A stretch of 64,000 nt of DNA from Candidatus Moranbacteria bacterium CG06_land_8_20_14_3_00_40_12 (GCA_002780175.1 PEVT01000048.1:8754-72753); one strand, 5' to 3'; positions 1,320 to 25,665 are shown, counted from the first letter of the stretch. Made by a program: numbers and translations. The notes: generated by a model from the letters alone, not told the origin.

Positions 1320-3035
1320 GTGATGATTAAAAAAGAAGAAGAAAAATCCGATTTAAAAAATGGGGAAAATGATTTAACCGACAAACTCGGTTTACCCGCG
1401 ACAAAAAAACTTGAAGAACTTCCTGAAAGAATTGATAATTCGGTGGTTAGTTTAATTCCCGAAGAAGTTGCCAGAAAACATGGCTTGTTGTTTTTTAACA
1501 AAAAAGAAAATACGATCCAGGTGGCTATGCTCAATCCTTACGATACGGATGCTCTTAATGTAATAAGATTCGTGGCCGAAAAAGAAGACATCGAAGCGGA
1601 AATTTACGAAGTCGGTCAGAAAATCTTTACGCAAATGCTGAACGCCTATAATACTCCCAGTGAAATGGTTAAAAAGGCCGTGGTATCCTTTCAAAGCGAT
1701 AATTTGTTTGAAGAAGGCGACTCTAAAAAAGAAGAAAAGAAAGTTTCCAAAGAAGAGATATTGAGAGACGCTCCGGTGGCTAAATTGGTCCAAGTGATTA
1801 TCAGCCATGCCATTGAAGGCCACGCCAGCGATATTCATATCGAACCGACAGAAAAAGATTATCGGGTCAGATATCGGGTGGATGGAGTTTTGCACATCAG
1901 CCTGGTTCTTCCCAAAGAAATCGGCCCGGTGGTGATTTCCCGGATAAAAATAATGGCTAACCTCAAAATTGATGAGCGCCGGAAGCCCCAGGACGGCCGT
2001 TTCAATTTAAAGATTGATGAAAATAAAACCAAGGCGGAAAACAAGAACATTCCCGAGAACAAAGATATCGATTTTCGAGTTTCCACTTTGCCGGTTCTTT
2101 TGGGTGAAAAGATAGTAATGAGAATTTTGGAAAAAGACGAAGACTTGATTAATATGAATTCCCTGGGACTAATGGGCTCTTCGCTGAAAAATCTTTTAAC
2201 GGCTATTCAAGAAACTTATGGGATTATTTTGATAACCGGGCCGACGGGATCGGGGAAATCCACTACTCTCTACGCGGCGCTCAAAATACTCAATAAGGAG
2301 GAAAAAAACATTGTTACATTGGAGGATCCGATTGAATATAATATCGGAGGATTGAATCAGAGCCAGATTAATCCGGAAATCGGCTACACTTTTGCCAACG
2401 GACTGCGGACAATTTTACGCCAAGATCCGAATATTATAATGGTGGGAGAAATTCGCGATTCAGAAACGGCTTCTCTTTCCATTCACGCGGCGCTCACGGG
2501 CCATTTGGTTCTTTCCACCTTGCATACCAATACGGCTCTGGGAGCTATCACCAGAATGATTGATATGGGAGTGGAAACATTTTTACTGGCTTCTTCCTTG
2601 CGGATGGTTATCGCTCAAAGATTGGTCAGAAGAATTTGTGAAAATTGCAAAGAAGAAATTCAGGTTTCCGATCTGATAAAATCCAAGATAATGGAAGAAA
2701 TAAAAGATATACCGCCGGAAGAAATAAAAAAATACGAAATTGAGCCGGGTTCGGAGTTGCGTTTCTTTAAAGGAAAGGGCTGCAACAAGTGCAACGGATT
2801 AGGGCTGAAAGGCAGAATTGCTGTTTACGAAGTAATTCCTATCACGAATCCCATGAAAGATATAATTTTTGATAAAATGGGCAATGAATCGCTGTTAATC
2901 CAGGAAAGAAACAAAGAACGGTTTGTAACCATGAAACAGGATGGAATATTAAAAATTTTAAAAGGAAAAACTACGATTGAAGAAGTGGAAAGAGTAACCG
3001 AAGGGAGCATCAGGTTATTAATTGATGAAGAATAA
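1320..3035 (+). CDS. pilB: Type IV pilus assembly ATPase PilB (GspE family)
   Basis: Walker A GPTGSGKSTT, Asp/His boxes, and a C-terminal tetracysteine CxxC...CxxC (CENC...CNKC). N-terminal GSPII_E_N-like domain. Confidence 0.85.
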   Translation: MMIKKEEEKSDLKNGENDLTDKLGLPATKKLEELPERIDNSVVSLIPEEVARKHGLLFFNKKENTIQVAMLNPYDTDALNVIRFVAEKEDIEAEIYEVGQKIFTQMLNAYNTPSEMVKKAVVSFQSDNLFEEGDSKKEEKKVSKEEILRDAPVAKLVQVIISHAIEGHASDIHIEPTEKDYRVRYRVDGVLHISLVLPKEIGPVVISRIKIMANLKIDERRKPQDGRFNLKIDENKTKAENKNIPENKDIDFRVSTLPVLLGEKIVMRILEKDEDLINMNSLGLMGSSLKNLLTAIQETYGIILITGPTGSGKSTTLYAALKILNKEEKNIVTLEDPIEYNIGGLNQSQINPEIGYTFANGLRTILRQDPNIIMVGEIRDSETASLSIHAALTGHLVLSTLHTNTALGAITRMIDMGVETFLLASSLRMVIAQRLVRRICENCKEEIQVSDLIKSKIMEEIKDIPPEEIKKYEIEPGSELRFFKGKGCNKCNGLGLKGRIAVYEVIPITNPMKDIIFDKMGNESLLIQERNKERFVTMKQDGILKILKGKTTIEEVERVTEGSIRLLIDEE

Positions 3036-3057
3036 TATTTTTTAACAGAATAAAAAT

Positions 3058-3450
3058 ATGGAAAATATTGAAAATGAAAAAAAACCCAAAATCATGGTGG
3101 TGGAAGACGATTCTTTCGTCATGGATATTTATCAGACTAAATTGAGCCAGGAGGGCTATGAAGTGATTCAAGCGGAAAATGGCGTGGAGGCTTTTAAAAA
3201 ATTGGAAACAAAAATTCCGGATCTGATTCTGCTGGATATCATTATGCCTTATATGGACGGTTTGCAAATGCTTAAAAAAATCAAATTGGAAGAAAAATTG
3301 AAAAATATTCCGGTGATTCTTTTGACGAATTTGAGCCAGAAGGAAAATATTGACGAAGGCTTGGGCTTGGGGGCGGAAGGCTATCTCATCAAATCCCATT
3401 TTACTCCGTCAGAAGTTCTGGAAAAAATAAAAAAATACATAAAAAAATAA
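3058..3450 (+). CDS. Single-domain response regulator receiver (CheY/PilH-like)
   Basis: KIMVVEDD...LILLDIIMPYMDG...K receiver signature. 130 aa with no output domain. Embedded between pilB and pilT. Confidence 0.8.
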   Translation: MENIENEKKPKIMVVEDDSFVMDIYQTKLSQEGYEVIQAENGVEAFKKLETKIPDLILLDIIMPYMDGLQMLKKIKLEEKLKNIPVILLTNLSQKENIDEGLGLGAEGYLIKSHFTPSEVLEKIKKYIKK

Positions 3451-16656: not shown

Positions 16657-18195
16657 ATGGCCAATAATAAAATGGAGGGTTTTGAGAAAACTCTTTTCAA
16701 AGCGGCGGATAAATTGCGGAAAAATATTGACGCGGCGGAATATAAACATGTGGCTCTGGGCTTGATATTTCTGAAATATATTTCTGATTCTTTTGAGGAA
16801 GTTTATCTAAAATTAAAAGAGGGCAAGGGCGAGTATGAAGGCGCCGATCCGGAAGATAGTGATGAATATGCGGCCGCGCATGTTTTTTATGTTCCACTAA
16901 AAGCGCGCTGGTCATATTTATATTCCCGAGCCAAGCTGCCATCGATTGGAAATGATCTGGATGAAGCGATGGATGCGATTGAAAAAGATAATCCGCCGCT
17001 TAAAGGAATTTTGCCAAAAGCCTATGCGAAACCGAATTTAGACAAGGCGTCTTTGGGCGGGCTGATTGATCTCATTGGAAATATTGCCCTCGGAGATGAG
17101 GCGGCAAAATCCAAAGATCTGCTTGGTCATGTTTATGAGTATTTTCTGGGCGAATTTGCTAATGCCGAGGGCAAAAAGGGCGGACAATTTTATACGCCGA
17201 AATCAATCGTGAAAATTATGGTTGAAATGATTGAACCCTACAAAGGTCGAGTCTATGATCCGGCTTGCGGGTCTGGCGGAATGTTCGTGATGAGTGAAAA
17301 ATTCGTGAAAGAACACAAGGGAAGAATCGATGACATTTCCATTTATGGACAGGAATCCAATCAAACTACATACAGACTTTGCAGAATGAACTTGGCGATT
17401 CGCGGTATTGATAGTTCTCAAGTGGCATGGAATACGGAGGGATCATTTCTAAATGACGCGCATAAAGATTTGAGAGCGGATTATATTCTCGCCAACCCTC
17501 CTTTTAATGATAGTGATTGGTCGGGTGACCAATTGCGCGGAGACGCGCGCTGGAAATACGGCGTGCCGCCGACCGGTAATGCTAATTTTGCCTGGATGCA
17601 GCATATGATCCACCATCTTTCGCCCAAAGGAATTATGGCCTTGGTTTTAGCCAATGGTTCGCTTTCGTCCAACACTTCCAATGAAGGAGAAATCAGAAAA
17701 AACATCATTGAAAACGATTTGGTGGATTGTATTGTCGCGCTTCCCAAACAGCTTTTCTATAATACGGGCATCCCGGCGTGCCTTTGGTTTCTTTCCCGCA
17801 AACGATCGGGCAACGGCGATCGAAAACGAACCGGCGAAATTCTTTTTATTGATGCCAGTGAAATGGGATATTTGTCAGACCGAACACACCGAATGTTTAC
17901 GGATAATGATGTCAAAAAAATTGCCGATACTTATCACGAATGGAGAAGTAAAGAAAGCAAATATAAAAATATCAAAGGATTTTGCAATTCAGCCACGGTA
18001 AAAGATATTGAAAAACATAATTTTGTCCTCACACCCGGCCGTTATGTTGGCATTCCGGATGAAATCGATGACGGAATTCCTTTTGAGAAAAAGATGGGAA
18101 AATTGAATGAAGAATTGAAAGGGCAGATGGAAAAAGGGAAAAAGTTGAATGATGAAATAAAAAAACAGCTTTCAAAAATTGGATATGGACTCTAA
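16657..18195 (+). CDS. hsdM: Type I restriction-modification system, N6-adenine DNA methyltransferase subunit HsdM
   Basis: HsdM N-terminal domain, AdoMet motif ([10 protein letters not shown]) and catalytic NPPF ([13 protein letters not shown]). Confidence 0.9.
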
Positions 18196-19150
18196 TGTTT
18201 TAATAATATTTGATACAAATAGGATTAGGAAAACCTCTAAGGGGGAGGCCGACTACTCGGATTTTAGTTTGGGCGGTGATTATCCTGAACTTTTAAAATT
18301 TGTAAAATTAAATAATTTAGAGAAATTTATTGATTTGGCAATACCTGAAATAGTTATTGATGAGCTGGAAATGCAATCTAAAAAATCATATTTTAACGAT
18401 CTAGAGGCATTGGAAAATATGAAAACAAGACTTGCTCCCATAATGGGAATTTTTACTAAGGGGAGGATGGCCTTTGATCCCGACAATCATATTCGGAAAA
18501 ACATAGAAAAATATTTGGCAGATAAAGGGAATGTGAAAATTTTAAAAATGAAAAAAGTTGATGATATTTTGGATCATCTAAAGAAGAAGGCTTTTTTGGT
18601 AAAAAAACCTTTTAAAAACAATGGCAATGGAGGTTTTAAAGATGCAATTTTATGGGAAAATATTTTACATTCAGACATATTTTCAAAATATGAAACAATT
18701 TATTTTTTTACAGAGAATGCTAATGATTTTGAGGGTTGCGGAACTGAATTTTTTAAAAAACATGGTAAAGATTTTAAAATTGTGGTGAATTATCCTCAAC
18801 TGGAAACGTTGCTTGAAGAAAAGTATATTGATTTGATTGAAAATATATCAATTTTTAAATTTATTAAGGACGATTATTTTAAGGACTATGTGGAAAAAAG
18901 CACGAAAGATCAGCGATTGAATGAAATAAATTCTGGCAATTTTGAGGATTATAAAATAACAGATGTAGAAATTAAAGATATTTGTCATGATTTTGAAAAA
19001 ATTGACAAGCTCAGGGAAGAGGAAATGGATCTTTATAAAATAATTTCGCTAGTGAAAATAACCTTAGATAATGGTCAAAAAAAGGAAATATTAGCAACTA
19101 CAACAATAGATGAAGATAGGCAGTTTATAGATTTTGAAATTGAACAATAA
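18179..19150 (+). CDS. PIN-like domain protein (DUF4935-like) embedded between hsdM and hsdS
   Basis: N-terminus [12 protein letters not shown] matches the 'xxhhhDTNhh' opening of PIN-like/DUF4935 domains. Acidic residues appear further along ([15 protein letters not shown]). The gene overlaps the hsdM stop by 17 nt and ends 3 nt before hsdS. Confidence 0.5.
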
Positions 19151-19153
19151 TTT

Positions 19154-20356
19154 ATGAATAATTGGAAAGGAACAACTTTAGGAGAAATTTGCAAGATATT
19201 AAGTGGAAGTACGCCATCAACAAAAGACACTGGTTTCTGGGATGGAAATATATCTTGGATTACGCCGAAAGATTTATCGGGATATGATAATGTTTTTATA
19301 GAAAGAGGGGAAAGAAATATAACAGACAAGGGTTTAAAAAATTCTTCGGCACAATTATTGCCAGTAAATACAGTTTTATTTTCATCGCGAGCGCCAATTG
19401 GCTATATTGCAATAGCAAAAAGAGAATTAACTACAAATCAGGGTTTTAAAAATATTATTTGCGATGAAAAGAAAACACATTTTAAGTTTATTTATTATTG
19501 GTTAAAAAATAGAAGCGATTATATTGAAAAACTCTCTTCCGGGTCAACCTTTAGTGAAGCTTCAGCGACTTTAATGAGAAGCTTGGAAATAAATCTACCA
19601 TCTATTGAGGAACAAAAACAAATTGCAGCGATGCTGTCGAGTTTGGATGATAAGATTGAGCTTTTGCGAAAGCAGAATGAAACACTGGAAAAAATTGCGC
19701 AGGGTGTTTTCAAGGAATGGTTCGTAAATTTTAAAATTGATGGCAAAAAATTAAAACTAAAAAATGGCATTCCGGAGGAGTGGAAAGTTGGAAAAATTTA
19801 TGAAACAGGAAAAGTTGTTTGTGGAAAGACACCATCAAAAGAAAATACTGATTATTTTGGCGGAAAAATACCATTTATAAAAATTCCAGATATGCATGGT
19901 CAAATGTTTCTTTTGAAGACTATCGATAAACTTTCAAAAAATGGTGCTGATTCTCAAAAAACAAAAACTATTCCAAAAAATTCAATCTGTGTGAGTTGTA
20001 TTGCGACGGTTGGATTAGTTTCAATAACAACTGAAGATTCGCAAACCAATCAACAGATCAACTCGGTAGTTCCAAATGATGAATATTTACTTGAATATTT
20101 ATATTTTTCTTTAAAATCCATCAGTGGATTTTTAAATTCTATAGGTTCGAGTGGCACAACAACGGCAAATGTAAATACCGGAACTTTTATGAATTTGGAA
20201 ATTTTAATTCCAGCAGAAGAACATTTATTGTTATTTCATAAAAATACCGTGGCAATGTTTTCTAAAATAAAAGATAATAATTTTCAAATCCAAACCCTCT
20301 CTCGCTTGCGCGACACGCTGTTGCCGAAGTTGATGAGCGGGGAAATAACAATATGA
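19154..20356 (+). CDS. hsdS: Type I R-M specificity subunit HsdS
   Basis: Two target-recognition domains. They are separated and followed by the conserved coiled-coil repeats (LPSIEEQKQIAAMLSSLDDKIELLRKQNETLEKIAQGVFKEWF; LSRLRDTLLPKLMSGEI). Confidence 0.85.
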   Translation: MNNWKGTTLGEICKILSGSTPSTKDTGFWDGNISWITPKDLSGYDNVFIERGERNITDKGLKNSSAQLLPVNTVLFSSRAPIGYIAIAKRELTTNQGFKNIICDEKKTHFKFIYYWLKNRSDYIEKLSSGSTFSEASATLMRSLEINLPSIEEQKQIAAMLSSLDDKIELLRKQNETLEKIAQGVFKEWFVNFKIDGKKLKLKNGIPEEWKVGKIYETGKVVCGKTPSKENTDYFGGKIPFIKIPDMHGQMFLLKTIDKLSKNGADSQKTKTIPKNSICVSCIATVGLVSITTEDSQTNQQINSVVPNDEYLLEYLYFSLKSISGFLNSIGSSGTTTANVNTGTFMNLEILIPAEEHLLLFHKNTVAMFSKIKDNNFQIQTLSRLRDTLLPKLMSGEITI

Positions 20357-20982
20357 GTAATTTAGAATTTATAAAACAGACAAAAATGAAACTCTTTGGA
20401 TATGCTATAGGTGATATTATTAGAGCAACAAGGGGAAACTCTCTAATGGGATCATTTGTTCAATGTTTTTGTTTTGTGGGGTATATAGCAGAAATTGCTC
20501 GTATAATAAAGCCCGGAGAGATGGCAGGTGATAAAATTTGTTATAAAAACTTTATTGAAAAGTATTTATCGCAATATGATAGTGGAAAAGTGTATGCAAT
20601 TAGGTGCGGACTGGTTCACACTTATGGTTATGCCAATTCAATGAATGAGGCGAAGATTACGGGGTATTCTTTTCAGCATAAAAACCCAGAAAACCATAGA
20701 AGATATGAAAATAACGTGTATCATTTAAATTTGAGTAATTTTATTTTTGATATCATAAAGGCAACATATGATTTTTTTAAAGAATTGGAAAGTAAAAGTG
20801 AAGAGGATCTATTTGATTATAGACAAAGAATTAAAGCAACTCTAACAGTGAATACTGAAACGGGGCCGAGAATTTCCATGAACTATGCGGGAGTAGATAG
20901 CATTTTATCTGTTATGGACTCTAGCAATATAGAATGGAAAATGTTAGAAGATAATATTTATCAACTTTGCTTAAAGGCATAA
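20353..20982 (+). CDS. Hypothetical 209-aa protein embedded between hsdS and hsdR
   Basis: ORF with good coding bias. The ATGA start overlaps the hsdS stop. It ends 9 nt before hsdR. No recognisable domain. Confidence 0.4.
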   Translation: MSNLEFIKQTKMKLFGYAIGDIIRATRGNSLMGSFVQCFCFVGYIAEIARIIKPGEMAGDKICYKNFIEKYLSQYDSGKVYAIRCGLVHTYGYANSMNEAKITGYSFQHKNPENHRRYENNVYHLNLSNFIFDIIKATYDFFKELESKSEEDLFDYRQRIKATLTVNTETGPRISMNYAGVDSILSVMDSSNIEWKMLEDNIYQLCLKA

Positions 20983-20991
20983 TATTTTTTT

Positions 20992-23900
20992 ATGACAAAA
21001 ATCACCGAATCAAATATTGAAGAAATAGCCATTGAATTCTTGGAAGCGCAAGGCTATCAATATCTTTCACCTGAAGGGCAAGAAACGGAAAGAGAAAATT
21101 TAAGTGAGGTTGTTTTAAAAAAGCGCTTGAAAGATGCGATCAATCGGATTAATCCATACAAGCCGGAAGTTGTGCGCGAGCAAGCTTTCAAGGCAGTTTT
21201 TAATTTGGTTTCGCAGAATTTAATTGAAAGCAATGAAGAATTTCATCGGATGCTGACGGACGGAATTGACACCGAATTTTTAGCAGCGGATGGCATACGG
21301 GGAAATAAAGTTTGGCTGATTGACTTTGAGAATATCGAAAATAATGATTTCGTGGTTTGCAATCAATTTACGGTTAAGGAAAAAGAAGCGACGAAAAGAC
21401 CCGATCTTGTTTTGTTTGTGAATGGTTTGCCTTTGGTCGTGATTGAACTCAAAAATCCGGCGGATGAAAATGCGACGGTCAAAAAGGCTTTTATGCAACT
21501 CCAAAATTACAAAAATTTAATTCTGGCGCTTTTTAATTACAATGCGATTTTAGCGGCTTCGGACGGGTTGGATGCTAAAGCCGGATCGCTCACGGCCGGA
21601 TGGTCGAGATTTGCCGTTTGGAAAAATTCGGAAAATAAAAAGGAGGATAAAAAAACCGTTCCGCAATTGGAAACTTTAATAAAAGGGATGCTTCGTCCGA
21701 AAATTTTGCTTGATTTGATAAAACATTTTACCGTTTTTGAAAAAGCCAAAAAAAAAGATTCGGAGACGGGACAAGTTTTTGTGGAAACCGTGAAAAAAAT
21801 CGCGGCTTATCATCAATTTTACGCGGTGCAAAAAGCGGTTGAGTCAACGGAAAAAGCGGCGAGTGAGAATGGAGACCGGAGGTGCGGAGTAGTTTGGCAC
21901 ACGCAAGGATCCGGCAAATCATTGTCGATGGTTTTTTACGCTGGAAAGATTATTCAGAAACTGAATAATCTGACCATCTTAATAATTACGGATCGAAACG
22001 ATTTGGACGATCAGCTTTTTGATACTTTTGCGTCGTGCAAACAAATTTTGCGCCAGGACCCGGTGCAAGTTGAAAATAGAAATGATCTCAAGAAAAAATT
22101 AAAAGTTGCCGGAGGCGGAATTGTTTTTTCAACCATCCAAAAATTTATGCCCGAAGATGGAGGAGAAACTTTTGATTTATTATCTGACAGAAAAAATATA
22201 ATTGTGATCGCGGATGAAGCGCACCGGAGCCAGTATGGATTTAAGGGAAAAATTACATTTGCCGGCGGAGGCGCGCAACTCAAATACGGTTTTGCCAAAT
22301 ATGTGCGCGATGCTTTGCCAAACGCTTCTTTTATCGGATTTACCGGAACGCCAATTGAAACAACGGACAAATCCACGCCGGCGGTGTTTGGCGACTACAT
22401 CGATGTTTATGATATTCAGCAGGCAGTCAAAGATGGAGCGACCGTGCCGATTTATTATGAAAATCGGTTGGTAAAAGTGCATCTCAAAGAAGAAGATAGA
22501 AAAGAATTAGATGAAGTCGTAGATCAGATGACGGAAAAAGATGAACCGGTAGAAGCGGACAAGGCAAAAGCGAAATGGGCCAGAATTGAAGCGATTGTCG
22601 GCCAGCAGGAACGCTTGAAAGCAGTGGCGAATGATATTGTGGAACATTATGAAAAACGCAGCGAAGCGGTTGAAGGGAAAGCGATGATTGTGACGATGAG
22701 CCGCCGTATTGCCGTAGCTTTATGTAATGAAATTATAAAATTAAGACCAACATGGCAGAATCGCGCATTGGACAAAGGAACGATTAAAGTGGTAATGACA
22801 ACGACTATGACTGACCCGGCGGATTGGCAGGCGCATTGCACCACCAAAGAACAACGGCGAAAATTAGCGGACAGATTTAAGGATCCGAGTGATTCGCTTA
22901 AATTAGTGATTGTTCGGGATATGTGGCTGACCGGTTTTGACGCGCCTTGCGCGAAAGTAATGTATGTGGACAAGCTGATGCGCGGACATAATTTAATGCA
23001 AGCGATTGCCAGAGTGAATCGAGTTTATAAAGATATTAGAGGCGGTTTAATTGTTGATTATATTGGAATAGCGCGGGATTTGAAAAAAGCTCTGGCTGTT
23101 TATACGGAAAGTGGCGGGCAAGGAATTCCGACGCTAAATCTTTCTGAAGCCGCATCGACTATGCAGGAAAAATTTGAAATTATTGAGGAGATGTTTTCTG
23201 ATTTTAAATATAAAGATTATTTTTCAGCCGATATAAATCGAAAGATGCAACTCCTGCTTGAGGCGCAAGAGCATGTTCTTCAATTGCCTGATGGGAAGAA
23301 ACGATTCATTGAACACATTGAAACATTAATGCGATCTTATGCGCTGGTAGCGCCACGGCCGGAAGCAATGGCAATAAAAGAAGCGCTGGCCTTCTTTCAG
23401 GCTGTGAAAGTGCGGCTGGTTAAATTTGAATCTGCTGGCGGAAAGGGACGCGATTCGGAAGAAATTGAAACGGCGATTCGCCAGATTGTGGATAAAGCAT
23501 TAGCTTCAGAAGGCGTCATTGATATTTTCAGCGCGGCCGGAATCAAGAAACCCGATGTTTCTATTTTGTCCGAAGAATTTTTGGCCGAAGTAAGAGGAAT
23601 GGATCGCAAAAATCTGGCATTGGAACTCATGAAGAAGTTATTGAATAACGAAATTGATAGTATCAAAAGCAAGAATATAGTTTTGGGAAGAAAATTTTCA
23701 GAAATGCTGGACGATGTTTTAAAGCGCTACCAATCCAATATTTTAACTGCGGCAGAAATTATTGAAGAAATGATCGGTATGGCTCGAGAAATTCGAGGAG
23801 AAGGCGATCGAAAGAAAAAACTGGGTTTGGTAACGGATTACGAAGTGGCTTTTTATGATGCTCTGACTAACAACGCAAGCGCAAAAGAAGTTTTGAGTCA

Positions 23901-24117
23901 TGAAGTTTTGCGAGAGCTGGCTTGCGTTCTGGTAGACAAGGTAAAGGAAAATACATCTATCGATTGGACAATTAGAGAAAGCGCGCGGGCGAAATTGCGG
24001 GTAATGATTAAGCGGACATTGAATAAATTCGGTTATCCGCCTGATATGCAAAAATTGGCGACAGATTTGATTTTAAAACAAGCAGAATTATTCGCTGATG
24101 ATACTCTCAAAAATTAA
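20992..24117 (+). CDS. hsdR: Type I R-M restriction subunit HsdR (SF2 helicase/PD-(D/E)xK nuclease)
   Basis: N-terminal nuclease motif (FVNGLPLVVIELK), helicase motifs I (TQGSGKS) and II (VIADEAHRSQ), and a C-terminal HsdR domain. 1041 aa. Confidence 0.9.
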   Translation: MTKITESNIEEIAIEFLEAQGYQYLSPEGQETERENLSEVVLKKRLKDAINRINPYKPEVVREQAFKAVFNLVSQNLIESNEEFHRMLTDGIDTEFLAADGIRGNKVWLIDFENIENNDFVVCNQFTVKEKEATKRPDLVLFVNGLPLVVIELKNPADENATVKKAFMQLQNYKNLILALFNYNAILAASDGLDAKAGSLTAGWSRFAVWKNSENKKEDKKTVPQLETLIKGMLRPKILLDLIKHFTVFEKAKKKDSETGQVFVETVKKIAAYHQFYAVQKAVESTEKAASENGDRRCGVVWHTQGSGKSLSMVFYAGKIIQKLNNLTILIITDRNDLDDQLFDTFASCKQILRQDPVQVENRNDLKKKLKVAGGGIVFSTIQKFMPEDGGETFDLLSDRKNIIVIADEAHRSQYGFKGKITFAGGGAQLKYGFAKYVRDALPNASFIGFTGTPIETTDKSTPAVFGDYIDVYDIQQAVKDGATVPIYYENRLVKVHLKEEDRKELDEVVDQMTEKDEPVEADKAKAKWARIEAIVGQQERLKAVANDIVEHYEKRSEAVEGKAMIVTMSRRIAVALCNEIIKLRPTWQNRALDKGTIKVVMTTTMTDPADWQAHCTTKEQRRKLADRFKDPSDSLKLVIVRDMWLTGFDAPCAKVMYVDKLMRGHNLMQAIARVNRVYKDIRGGLIVDYIGIARDLKKALAVYTESGGQGIPTLNLSEAASTMQEKFEIIEEMFSDFKYKDYFSADINRKMQLLLEAQEHVLQLPDGKKRFIEHIETLMRSYALVAPRPEAMAIKEALAFFQAVKVRLVKFESAGGKGRDSEEIETAIRQIVDKALASEGVIDIFSAAGIKKPDVSILSEEFLAEVRGMDRKNLALELMKKLLNNEIDSIKSKNIVLGRKFSEMLDDVLKRYQSNILTAAEIIEEMIGMAREIRGEGDRKKKLGLVTDYEVAFYDALTNNASAKEVLSHEVLRELACVLVDKVKENTSIDWTIRESARAKLRVMIKRTLNKFGYPPDMQKLATDLILKQAELFADDTLKN

Positions 24118-24287
24118 TTACATACCGAATTACGTAATAAAAGCATGCGAAAAGCGTACTGCGAATACGCCCATGCGAATAAAATTTTATGGCTAAACGT
24201 GTCATTTACCCACGGCCGTATCCAGATGACATGGTAATTGGCATTTGCAAATCAAGCGATAATATGGCATTATTAAGTTAGAAAAAT

Positions 24288-24782
24288 ATGCCTTTACACG
24301 CGGAAAAATATAAACAAGTCATCCTTTATCTCTGCTCGCAGTTAGGCAAAGAAGTGCGAGGGAAGAAAAAATTGGCGAAATTGCTTTATTTCGTTGATTT
24401 TGATTTTTTTGAAAAGTATCAGAAATATTTTACCGGCGATAAATACAAGGCTTTGCCGATGGGACCGGTTCCCGTCTCTTTAAATGCGATAACAAGGGAA
24501 ATGAAAAAAGAAAAAGCATTGAAAATTGAATCAGTCAATGAACATAATGGATACAATGCAACCGAAGTTTATACCTGTCTGAAAGAACCGAAAACTGCTG
24601 TTTTTTCCAAGGAAGAAAAAGAAATGCTGGATAGGGTAATTAAGAAATATGGAAGCCTCAACGGGAAACAACTTGAAGATCTGACTCACGCGGAAGCGCC
24701 TTATTCCGGGACAAAACCAAGCGAGGAGATATTTTACGAATTGGCATTTTATCGAGGAACGGATTTTAAAAATAATGATTGA
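24288..24782 (+). CDS. Panacea-domain (DUF4065, SocA/GepA-like) putative antitoxin
   Basis: KKLAKLLYFVDFDFFEKYQKYFTGDKYKALPMGPVPVSL matches the KLQKLLYF.../GPV signature of DUF4065. Confidence 0.6.
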   Translation: MPLHAEKYKQVILYLCSQLGKEVRGKKKLAKLLYFVDFDFFEKYQKYFTGDKYKALPMGPVPVSLNAITREMKKEKALKIESVNEHNGYNATEVYTCLKEPKTAVFSKEEKEMLDRVIKKYGSLNGKQLEDLTHAEAPYSGTKPSEEIFYELAFYRGTDFKNND

Positions 24783-25137
24783 GTTTATTTACCATCCTGC
24801 ATTTGAAAAAGAAACTGCCAAATTAACGCGGCGGTTTTCTTTTTTAGATAAGGCGCTGGAGGCATTTAAAATGTTGTGCGAGTTTCAATTTCACCCTTTA
24901 AATCCTCAACAAAGAATTGCTCCCGCAAAATTGCATAGAGTCACACAAAATGATTTGTGGAGTATTTGGAAGATTGAGCTTTCCGTTCCAAATGTCAGAC
25001 CTAATCAATCTCCCAGAGTTTGGTTTGCCGTAAAGGGTTTAAATATTGCATTTTTATGTATAGCCTCGCACGTTGATAATTACAGCGATAACCAGATGAA
25101 TCAAGTGGCGACAGGAAGAGTTTCAGATATTTTCTAA
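24775..25137 (+). CDS. Candidate toxin partner of the Panacea antitoxin (RelE/HigB-like fold suspected)
   Basis: Overlaps the upstream gene by 8 nt. The core KLHRVTQNDLWSIWKIEL...RVWFAVKGLNIAFLCIASH resembles the RelE/HigB beta-core. This is tentative. Confidence 0.4.
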   Translation: MIEFIYHPAFEKETAKLTRRFSFLDKALEAFKMLCEFQFHPLNPQQRIAPAKLHRVTQNDLWSIWKIELSVPNVRPNQSPRVWFAVKGLNIAFLCIASHVDNYSDNQMNQVATGRVSDIF

Positions 25138-25181
25138 ATTTTTTAATTAACGCATTTTTCAACTACTTTTTATGTCATTTG

Positions 25182-25206
25182 ATGGCTTTATATAGCCATT
25201 TTTTTG
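25182..25206 (+). terminator. Rho-independent terminator (ATGGCT-TTATAT-AGCCAT-TTTTTTT)
   Basis: 6-bp stem plus a 7-T run, seen directly after the TA pair. Confidence 0.6.
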
Positions 25207-25218
25207 CATAAAAAAGTG

Positions 25219-25246
25219 TTGCAATTTTTGACCATTTGTGTATAAT
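25219..25246 (+). promoter_or_regulatory. Sigma70-like promoter TTGCAA-16-TATAAT
   Basis: The -35 TTGCAA (25219-25224), a 16-nt spacer and the -10 TATAAT (25241-25246). It sits 48 nt upstream of the 25294 ORF. Confidence 0.5.
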
Positions 25247-25293
25247 AGAAGGGTATAAGAGAAAAATAAAAAATTACTAAAATTAGACCTACT

Positions 25294-25665
25294 ATGACTT
25301 TAAGATTCTATCTTTGGGTTGTTAAAATAGTGACCCTTTTTTCTTTTAGCGCCCTGATTCTGGTGATTTATTTTATCGATCCGGAAAAAACCGGCCGGGC
25401 CGGTAAAATTATTTTTTATCTCGTTCTTTTTTTCGCTTTAAGCGGTTTGTTGAATTTGATTTTAACTAAGTTAAGAAAGATTTGGGGGGGAGAAAAGGCG
25501 GTAATTTTAAACATCAGTTTAAGTTCCCGCCAAAGCGTACTACTTTCCGTAATTCTGATTGGCCTTTTAATTTTGCAAAGCTCGCGGATTTTAGTTTGGT
25601 GGACGGGATTGCTCCTGATCGCCGGCGTTTTTCTAATAGAATTATATTTTTTAGATAAAAAATAA
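25294..25665 (+). CDS. Small multi-pass membrane protein
   Basis: Four hydrophobic segments. 123 aa. Confidence 0.35.
   Translation: MTLRFYLWVVKIVTLFSFSALILVIYFIDPEKTGRAGKIIFYLVLFFALSGLLNLILTKLRKIWGGEKAVILNISLSSRQSVLLSVILIGLLILQSSRILVWWTGLLLIAGVFLIELYFLDKK

Follow-up and report, generated by a model that had tools for sequence, protein, structure and literature searches.

A Panacea-domain antitoxin candidate paired with a predicted RelE-fold protein family in Patescibacteria

The 64,000-nucleotide stretch of Candidatus Moranbacteria bacterium CG06_land_8_20_14_3_00_40_12 that was analysed here (GCA_002780175.1 PEVT01000048.1:8754-72753; hereafter called the window) contains a cassette of two plus-strand genes, which is a candidate toxin–antitoxin (TA) module of the PanAT type. 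The first open reading frame (ORF1, 24288..24782) encodes a stand-alone Panacea (DUF4065) protein of 164 amino acids (aa), the antitoxin candidate PanA; the second (ORF2, 24775..25137) encodes PanT, a toxin candidate of 120 aa with a predicted fold of the RelE/ParE superfamily, which resembles the Gp49/HigB-like subtype in its long C-terminal helix. The end of panA and the start of panT share 8 nucleotides (nt) on the plus strand (24775..24782, ATGATTGA), with the ATG of ORF2 at 24775 and the TGA of ORF1 at 24780-24782, a geometry that suggests translational coupling. Both genes and their overlap had been correctly described in the original prediction, which was made from the sequence of the window.

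The same prediction had recognized ORF1 as a Panacea protein, and this is borne out by a match to PF13274 (SocA_Panacea) with E = 6e-25 and 88.8 bits (cut-off 25.7) that covers model positions 1-112 of 113. The domain comprises residues 29-139 of PanA and includes the motifs KLAKLLYF (residues 28-35, overlapping its start) and GPVP (residues 59-62), so that ORF1 combines the PF13274 match with the GPV signature by which antitoxins of PanAT systems are recognized. M58, G59, P60, and P62 are invariant among 47 homologues, and the GPV motif is known to be critical for neutralisation by PanA (PMC8832971). Structurally, PanA is matched best by the toxin-binding domain of DarG.

Beyond the domain, PanA carries a conserved C-terminal tail (residues 140-164; 24707-24779 in the window) that neither the Pfam nor the PHROG model covers. 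It is conserved as much as the domain itself, with I148, Y150, E151, L152, Y155, R156, T158, and F160 invariant among the 47 homologues, and its motif I-x-Y-E-L-x-x-Y-R-x-T-x-F persists in the distant PanA partners of the family. Structure prediction assigns low confidence to residues 151-164 (predicted local distance difference test, pLDDT, 41-52). Conservation without a confident fold of its own is typical of a toxin-binding element, and our working hypothesis is that the tail may be such an element.

The cassette is preceded by a putative promoter on the plus strand (24245..24273), which consists of TTGCAA (24245-24250), a gap of 17 nt ending in TGG (24265-24267), and CATTAT (24268-24273), and ends 14 nt upstream of the ATG of ORF1. 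When the upstream region of the window was aligned with those of five related loci (L011, L012, L014, L016, and L017), conservation was limited to the last ~50 nt before the start codon (TTGCA ... TGGCATTATT). The conserved element is probably the cassette's own promoter, travelling with it. A consensus scan returned an overlapping promoter-like site (TTGGCA-16-TAATAT) at 24238-24265 and, 44 nt past the stop codon of panT, a putative terminator on the same strand (25181..25209), whose 7-bp stem with three G-C pairs is followed by TTTTTGCATA.

The PanT family and its predicted fold

The original prediction had left ORF2 unclassified, and at the level of sequence it remains so. Searches against Pfam, NCBIfam, PADLOC, and PHROGs returned only noise below the thresholds (e.g., Blr_divisome with E = 0.03), and the sequences of the PDB gave no match either with the single sequence or with the profiles A1 and A3. 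It is nevertheless a genuine, conserved gene that belongs to a small family. When 5.8 billion proteins were searched by word index, 191 relatives were recovered, all unannotated, with 57-90% identity and lengths of ~120-133 aa, and every relative with an organism label belongs to the Patescibacteria, the Candidate Phyla Radiation (CPR). A profile search of all 1.84 billion representative proteins yielded only 90 matches at E <= 1e-3, three of which (P0128, P0183, and P0206; E = 1e-33 to 7e-5) were rejected as artefacts, being long tandem-repeat proteins in which weak repeat matches had added up. Like the window protein (isoelectric point, pI, 9.06), the family is basic, with a median pI of 9.0.

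The family has a sporadic distribution. Among 185,579 species-representative genomes (one genome per GTDB species), 109 encode a relative of PanT, and almost all of these are labelled as CPR, including Moranbacteria, Paceibacterota, Vogel-, Zambryski-, Giovannoni-, Nomura-, Kaiser-, Komeili-, Magasanik-, and Peregrinibacteria. One distant member falls outside the CPR; in this metagenome-assembled genome of Acidobacteria (L091:176-5547), panA and panT are located between integrase/resolvase and terminase genes in a prophage-like setting. No relatives were found among the viral contigs of IMG/VR, the phages of INPHARED, or the plasmids of PLSDB.

The fold of PanT was predicted with AlphaFold2 from an alignment of 46 sequences, which gave a very confident model (pLDDT 94.4; predicted template modelling score, pTM, 0.88). 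Its topology, β1(3-6)-α1(8-20)-α2(24-38)-β2(53-58)-β3(63-68)-β4(81-87)-β5(90-97)-α3(105-119), is that of a RelE-like alpha+beta fold, in which N-terminal helices pack against an antiparallel sheet. The best structural match is HigB1 of Mycobacterium tuberculosis (7nbu_Y; score 11.3, 97 aa aligned with a root-mean-square deviation of 2.3 Å and 20% identity), followed by HigB of Streptococcus pneumoniae (10.5), RelE of Pyrococcus horikoshii (10.2), YafQ and HigB2 of Vibrio cholerae (both 9.3), a toxin of Helicobacter pylori (9.2), RelE3 (8.6), and ParE-type toxins (≤ 8.2). Foldseek is concordant and places HigB1 first with a probability of 0.98. The model agrees with the original prediction, which had suspected a RelE/HigB-like core in the stretch WSIWKIEL ... 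RVWFAVKGLNIAFLCIASH (residues 62-99) and had proposed structure prediction as a check.

A long C-terminal α3 separates the Gp49-like toxins HigB1, S. pneumoniae HigB, and HigB2 from RelE of Escherichia coli and HigB of Proteus vulgaris (PMC9098466). The PanT model has such a long α3, all three of these Gp49-like toxins are within its five top matches, and HigB1 falls in the Pfam family Gp49.

Conservation within the family outlines a candidate pocket. Among close relatives, K52, H54, W65, K66, E68, N77, Q78, P80, W83, N102, and R115 are invariant, and R55, R81, H99, D101, and Y103 show a conservation of at least 90%; in the whole family (down to ~20% identity), P80 is still invariant, H99 and Y103 are conserved to at least 90%, and the motif Q78-x-P80-(R/K)81 persists. 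A profile alignment of PanT and HigB1 that is colinear over 94 columns but insignificant (probability 1%, pairwise E = 0.05) pairs H54 with K58, K66 with E66, E68 with R68, N77 with N73, and R81 with R77, and it sets the H99-Y103 loop of PanT opposite the F93-K95-Q98-K99 loop of HigB1. These residues of HigB1 form its mRNA-binding and catalytic pocket, and alanine at K58, R68, N73, R77, K95, or K99 abolishes or strongly reduces toxicity (PMC9098466). Residues K52, H54, K66, E68, N77, R81, H99, and Y103 of PanT may therefore occupy the positions of the HigB1 pocket. The original prediction had seen no catalytic pattern in ORF2; this view is not upheld by the invariant or highly conserved His, Lys, Arg, Asn, and Tyr residues that appear at these positions.

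Pairing, genomic contexts, and decay of panT

The association of PanA and PanT is almost without exception. Three sets of loci were evaluated: 80 species-representative loci for the gene upstream of panT, 79 species-representative pairs for the overlap, and 81 loci for the clustering of flanking genes. A PanA homologue (E = 1e-54 to 1e-95) is encoded directly upstream of panT on the same strand in 79 of the 80 loci, and the sole locus that lacks it has just 112 bp of upstream sequence. Also the distant members P0141, P0193, P0207, and P0210 (E = 1e-24 to 8e-4) are preceded by a Panacea gene wherever upstream sequence exists. The two genes overlap in 73 of the 79 pairs, by 4 nt in 46, by 8 nt in 23, by 7 nt in three, and by 1 nt in one of them, and the pairwise identities among PanA sequences track those among PanT sequences (r = 0.86). 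That the two genes form a pair, as originally predicted, is supported by the strict conservation of this arrangement.

By contrast, the surroundings of the pair are hardly ever the same. Clustering of the flanking genes yielded 79 distinct combinations of upstream and downstream neighbours among the 81 loci; many of these contexts are housekeeping genes, such as the end of a ribosomal-protein operon or a site between the gene of an S41 peptidase and rplI. Such a conserved arrangement of two genes, or at most three, in varied contexts is the pattern that characterizes PanAT modules, and the PanA-PanT pair is an autonomous, mobile module.

In the window, a type I restriction-modification (R-M) operon is located directly upstream of the cassette (hsdM, 16657-18195; hsdS, 19154-20356; hsdR, 20992-24117). 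A sequence identical to the window PanT recurs on contigs of many samples, each time in the context HsdR-PanA-PanT-123aa-GyrB. The original prediction was right about the adjacent R-M island, but its further assumption of a defence neighbourhood did not hold: HsdR adjoins the cassette only in the lineage of the window, a conserved defence neighbourhood was rejected, and the defence-island argument is therefore not general.

The toxin candidate also decays on its own. In three species (L035, L061, and L069, each at locus positions 3001-3369), panT is interrupted by in-frame stops that arose independently. In L061, a TGA replaces W65, and in L069, a TAG stands at the position of W83, both Trp residues being conserved throughout the family; in L035, a TGA is found at position 79, a variable site where some homologues have Trp. 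Genetic recoding at these codons (TGA, TGA, and TAG) was rejected; the stops are nonsense mutations, because code 11 yields intact genes on either side of panT. An apparent frameshift of panT in L046 was likewise dismissed, since it proved to be a masked run of N. The panA gene is intact in all 79 copies except one that is cut by a contig end, and it is intact also upstream of the three interrupted panT genes. Loss of panT with retention of panA is the pattern expected if unopposed PanT is harmful.

Related systems and possible mode of action

The architecture of the cassette is already known, because Dataset S1 of Kurata et al. 2022 (PNAS, PMC8832971) lists Panacea antitoxins paired with RelE/ParE-like toxins. 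The part of this dataset that was considered contains four PanT clusters with annotations or predictions of this type: T14/pT15 from methanogens and Cryosericota (HHpred HigB-2, 99.7%), T28/pT31 from Proteobacteria (HHpred YoeB/ParE, 89%), T48/pT59 from Rickettsia (Txe/YoeB, CDD ParE_toxin), and T59/pT70 from haloarchaea (CDD ParE_toxin). They resemble the window cassette in having a Panacea antitoxin without an extra N-terminal domain (‘noNTD’), the antitoxin gene in first position, and a small toxin; the spacing of their genes ranges from -20 to +39 nt, and the genes in the window likewise overlap. However, their toxins are detectable as RelE/ParE by sequence, whereas the window PanT family matches none of the profiles run. 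They also stem from RefSeq genomes, whereas the window family is almost wholly patescibacterial, a distinction that compares descriptions rather than sequences. Neither ‘Patescibacteria’ nor ‘Parcubacteria’ is mentioned among the PanAT catalogue entries considered (PMC8832971), and no CPR hosts occur in the portions of the PanAT and NetFlax catalogues that were covered. The original prediction had raised the possibility of a new Panacea-partnered family. This applies to the PanT sequence family, which is new and was missed by every library searched, but not to the kind of system, which, as far as the considered entries go, had already been catalogued as T14, T28, T48, and T59.

The Gp49-like HigB toxins are more remote in sequence and in organization. 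HigB1 of the TAC system (Rv1955; Gp49, PF05973; 7awk, 7nbu), S. pneumoniae HigB (6af3), and V. cholerae HigB2 (5mje) share 12-20% identity with PanT, which has no Pfam Gp49 match and shows no significant hhalign similarity to the HigB1/Gp49 family profile. If the insignificant alignment is followed, the pocket of PanT would have H for K58, K for E66, and E for R68 of HigB1. The α3 of PanT is not strongly basic, unlike that of HigB1, and its antitoxin is a Panacea protein rather than HigA, a helix-turn-helix protein, with a SecB-like chaperone. In classical higBA operons, the toxin gene comes first, whereas the cassette of the window begins with the antitoxin gene.

The cassette is probably a type II PanAT module with a cassette-borne promoter and translational coupling. 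In this reading, which we hold with moderate confidence, PanT would cleave mRNA as a ribosome-dependent endonuclease of the HigB/RelE kind, and PanA would bind it directly and thereby inhibit it. Its direct support comes from the domain identity, the fold, the strict pairing, the mobility, and the asymmetric decay of the pair, whereas the toxicity of PanT, its RNase activity and dependence on the ribosome, the direct binding by PanA, and the role of the tail are what we infer. A single promoter carried by the cassette would drive panA and the translationally coupled panT. PanT would enter the ribosomal A site and cleave mRNA, which would lead to translation arrest; its putative pocket would comprise K52 and H54 (β2), K66 and E68 (β3), N77, Q78, and R81 (β3-β4 loop and β4), and H99, N102, and Y103 (β5-α3 loop). 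The stand-alone PanA would neutralise PanT by binding it directly, with the C-terminal tail as a candidate binding element, and the cassette would move among the genomes of Patescibacteria as a selfish or defensive accessory unit. Direct binding has precedents: PanA antitoxins pull down their cognate toxins and neutralise them without ClpXP or Lon (PMC8832971), and direct neutralisation is the mode of Panacea domains that stand alone, whereas PanAs with several domains rely on appended elements (PMC10440598).

Several results weigh against this interpretation. No sequence method ties PanT to any RelE/ParE family, and a sequence match at the level of the superfamily was not obtained: hhalign of PanT against the HigB1/Gp49 family profile was not significant (probability 1.6% and 1.0%), a Pfam scan of 10 distant PanT relatives returned no match, and PF05973 (Gp49) matched neither ORF2 nor these 10 relatives, whereas HigB1 itself scores 67.5 bits. 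RelE and ParE are not separable by fold alone. The residue equivalences between PanT and HigB1 are tentative, since they derive from an insignificant alignment. In the α3 of PanT, only R115 is both basic and conserved. K113 and R117 of HigB1 touch the P-site tRNA, and α3 is acidic in HigB2 and HigB3 of M. tuberculosis, which are non-toxic (PMC9098466). PanA of the window is basic (pI 8.8) and not acidic. Among the PanTs assayed by Kurata et al., eight were non-toxic in E. coli (PMC8832971), and in the part of their Dataset S1 considered here, T14, T28, T48, and T59 are all marked ‘notest’.

An unlikely alternative is that the pair does not arrest growth as a TA system would, and that PanT has become, in these small genomes, a RelE-fold factor that is domesticated or inactive and associated with the ribosome or with RNA, with PanA as its regulator or sensor. 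The absence of HigB1's basic patch from the α3 of PanT and the location of many loci amid ribosomal-protein and other housekeeping genes would fit such a role, as would the non-toxicity of several HigB paralogues in M. tuberculosis (PMC9098466). Further support comes from a distant pair with reversed essentiality reported from the minimal Mycoplasma mycoides/JCVI-syn3.0, where the quasi-essential, RelE-like MMSYN1_0416 adjoins the non-essential DUF4065 gene MMSYN1_0417 (PMC13621843). This pair, which was compared with that of the window by description only, differs in its Mollicutes host, its quasi-essential toxin-like gene, and its dispensable DUF4065 gene, and the authors point out that polar effects may explain the essentiality. 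By contrast, the sporadic distribution of PanT (109 of 185,579 species representatives), the insertion contexts that differ in almost every species, and a decay confined to the toxin gene (three nonsense alleles) point to a costly accessory gene and not to a housekeeping gene. The study of JCVI-syn3.0 (2026) states that the pairing of RelE-like and DUF4065 proteins has no known precedent; the 2022 PanAT catalogue, in the part considered, lists four such clusters.

A more novel reading of the cassette appears distinctly unlikely. Here, the PanA tail (I-P/F-Y-E-L-x-F-Y-R-x-T) would be an undescribed neutralising element for RelE-fold toxins that leaves the Panacea core free as a sensor, and the RelE-fold partner would help to control translation in minimal, host-dependent cells, in a role that is conditional or semi-domesticated, so that the cassette would be a system adapted to Patescibacteria rather than a plain addiction module. 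The role proposed for PanT echoes the quasi-essential RelE-like/DUF4065 pair of JCVI-syn3.0.

That PanT is instead a ParE-type toxin, which would poison DNA gyrase and be blocked by the binding of PanA, is permitted by the common fold, yet highly improbable: all ParE structural matches score below the seven best mRNase matches, the neighbourhood of gyrB is not conserved, and the PanT family seems to keep a His/Lys/Arg/Asn/Tyr set at the positions of the mRNase pocket. We know of no ParE toxins with such a set. Nor, to our knowledge, does SocB, the toxin of the type VI system SocAB of Caulobacter, have a RelE fold. A SocA-like PanA, which would act as a proteolytic adaptor that passes PanT to ClpXP rather than as a stoichiometric binder, is the least probable alternative, since the Panacea domain common to SocA and PanA, the NCBI annotation of some homologues as ‘SocA family protein’, and a weak match to the NCBIfam model SocA (NF047745; E = 3.6e-5) are outweighed by a score of 23.5 bits against an equivalog cut-off of 190 bits, by the assayed PanAs, which capture their toxins in pull-downs and need neither ClpXP nor Lon for neutralisation (PMC8832971), and by the direct neutralisation by stand-alone Panacea domains (PMC10440598). 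In SocAB, SocA is a ClpXP adaptor and SocB a replication inhibitor (PMC8832971).

The type II PanAT reading matters mostly for annotation. About 190 clusters of ‘hypothetical’ proteins, with relatives in at least 109 mostly CPR species, are missed by Pfam, NCBIfam, PADLOC, and PHROGs; going by the predicted fold, they can be placed in the RelE/ParE superfamily as a toxin family of its own that is partnered with Panacea, and the PanT alignment could seed a new profile. The range of PanAT systems is extended into the CPR, a lineage not sampled by RefSeq-based catalogues in the portions considered. The understanding of TA systems is unchanged, and the result will not surprise a specialist, but the compact (164 + 120 aa) and strongly conserved cassette is a clean experimental model for asking how a toxin of RelE fold might be kept in check by a Panacea protein that stands alone.

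Neighbouring features in the window

Just upstream of the cassette promoter lies an imperfect palindrome of 32 nt (24200-24231; TGTCATTTACCCACGGCCGTATCCAGATGACA). It was considered as an operator and rejected; the palindrome is probably part of the 3' flank of hsdR, because it is not conserved in related loci. An Rfam scan of 24050-25350 gave nothing credible.

The R-M operon (16657-24117) contains two additional genes, an ORF with a PIN_12 domain between hsdM and hsdS (18179-19150) and an ORF of 209 aa without a Pfam match between hsdS and hsdR (20353-20982). On the other side of the cassette, a strongly hydrophobic ORF of 123 aa without a family match (25294-25665) follows panT only in the lineage of the window; it is preceded by a promoter-like site of its own, TTGCAA-16-TATAAT, at 25219-25246.
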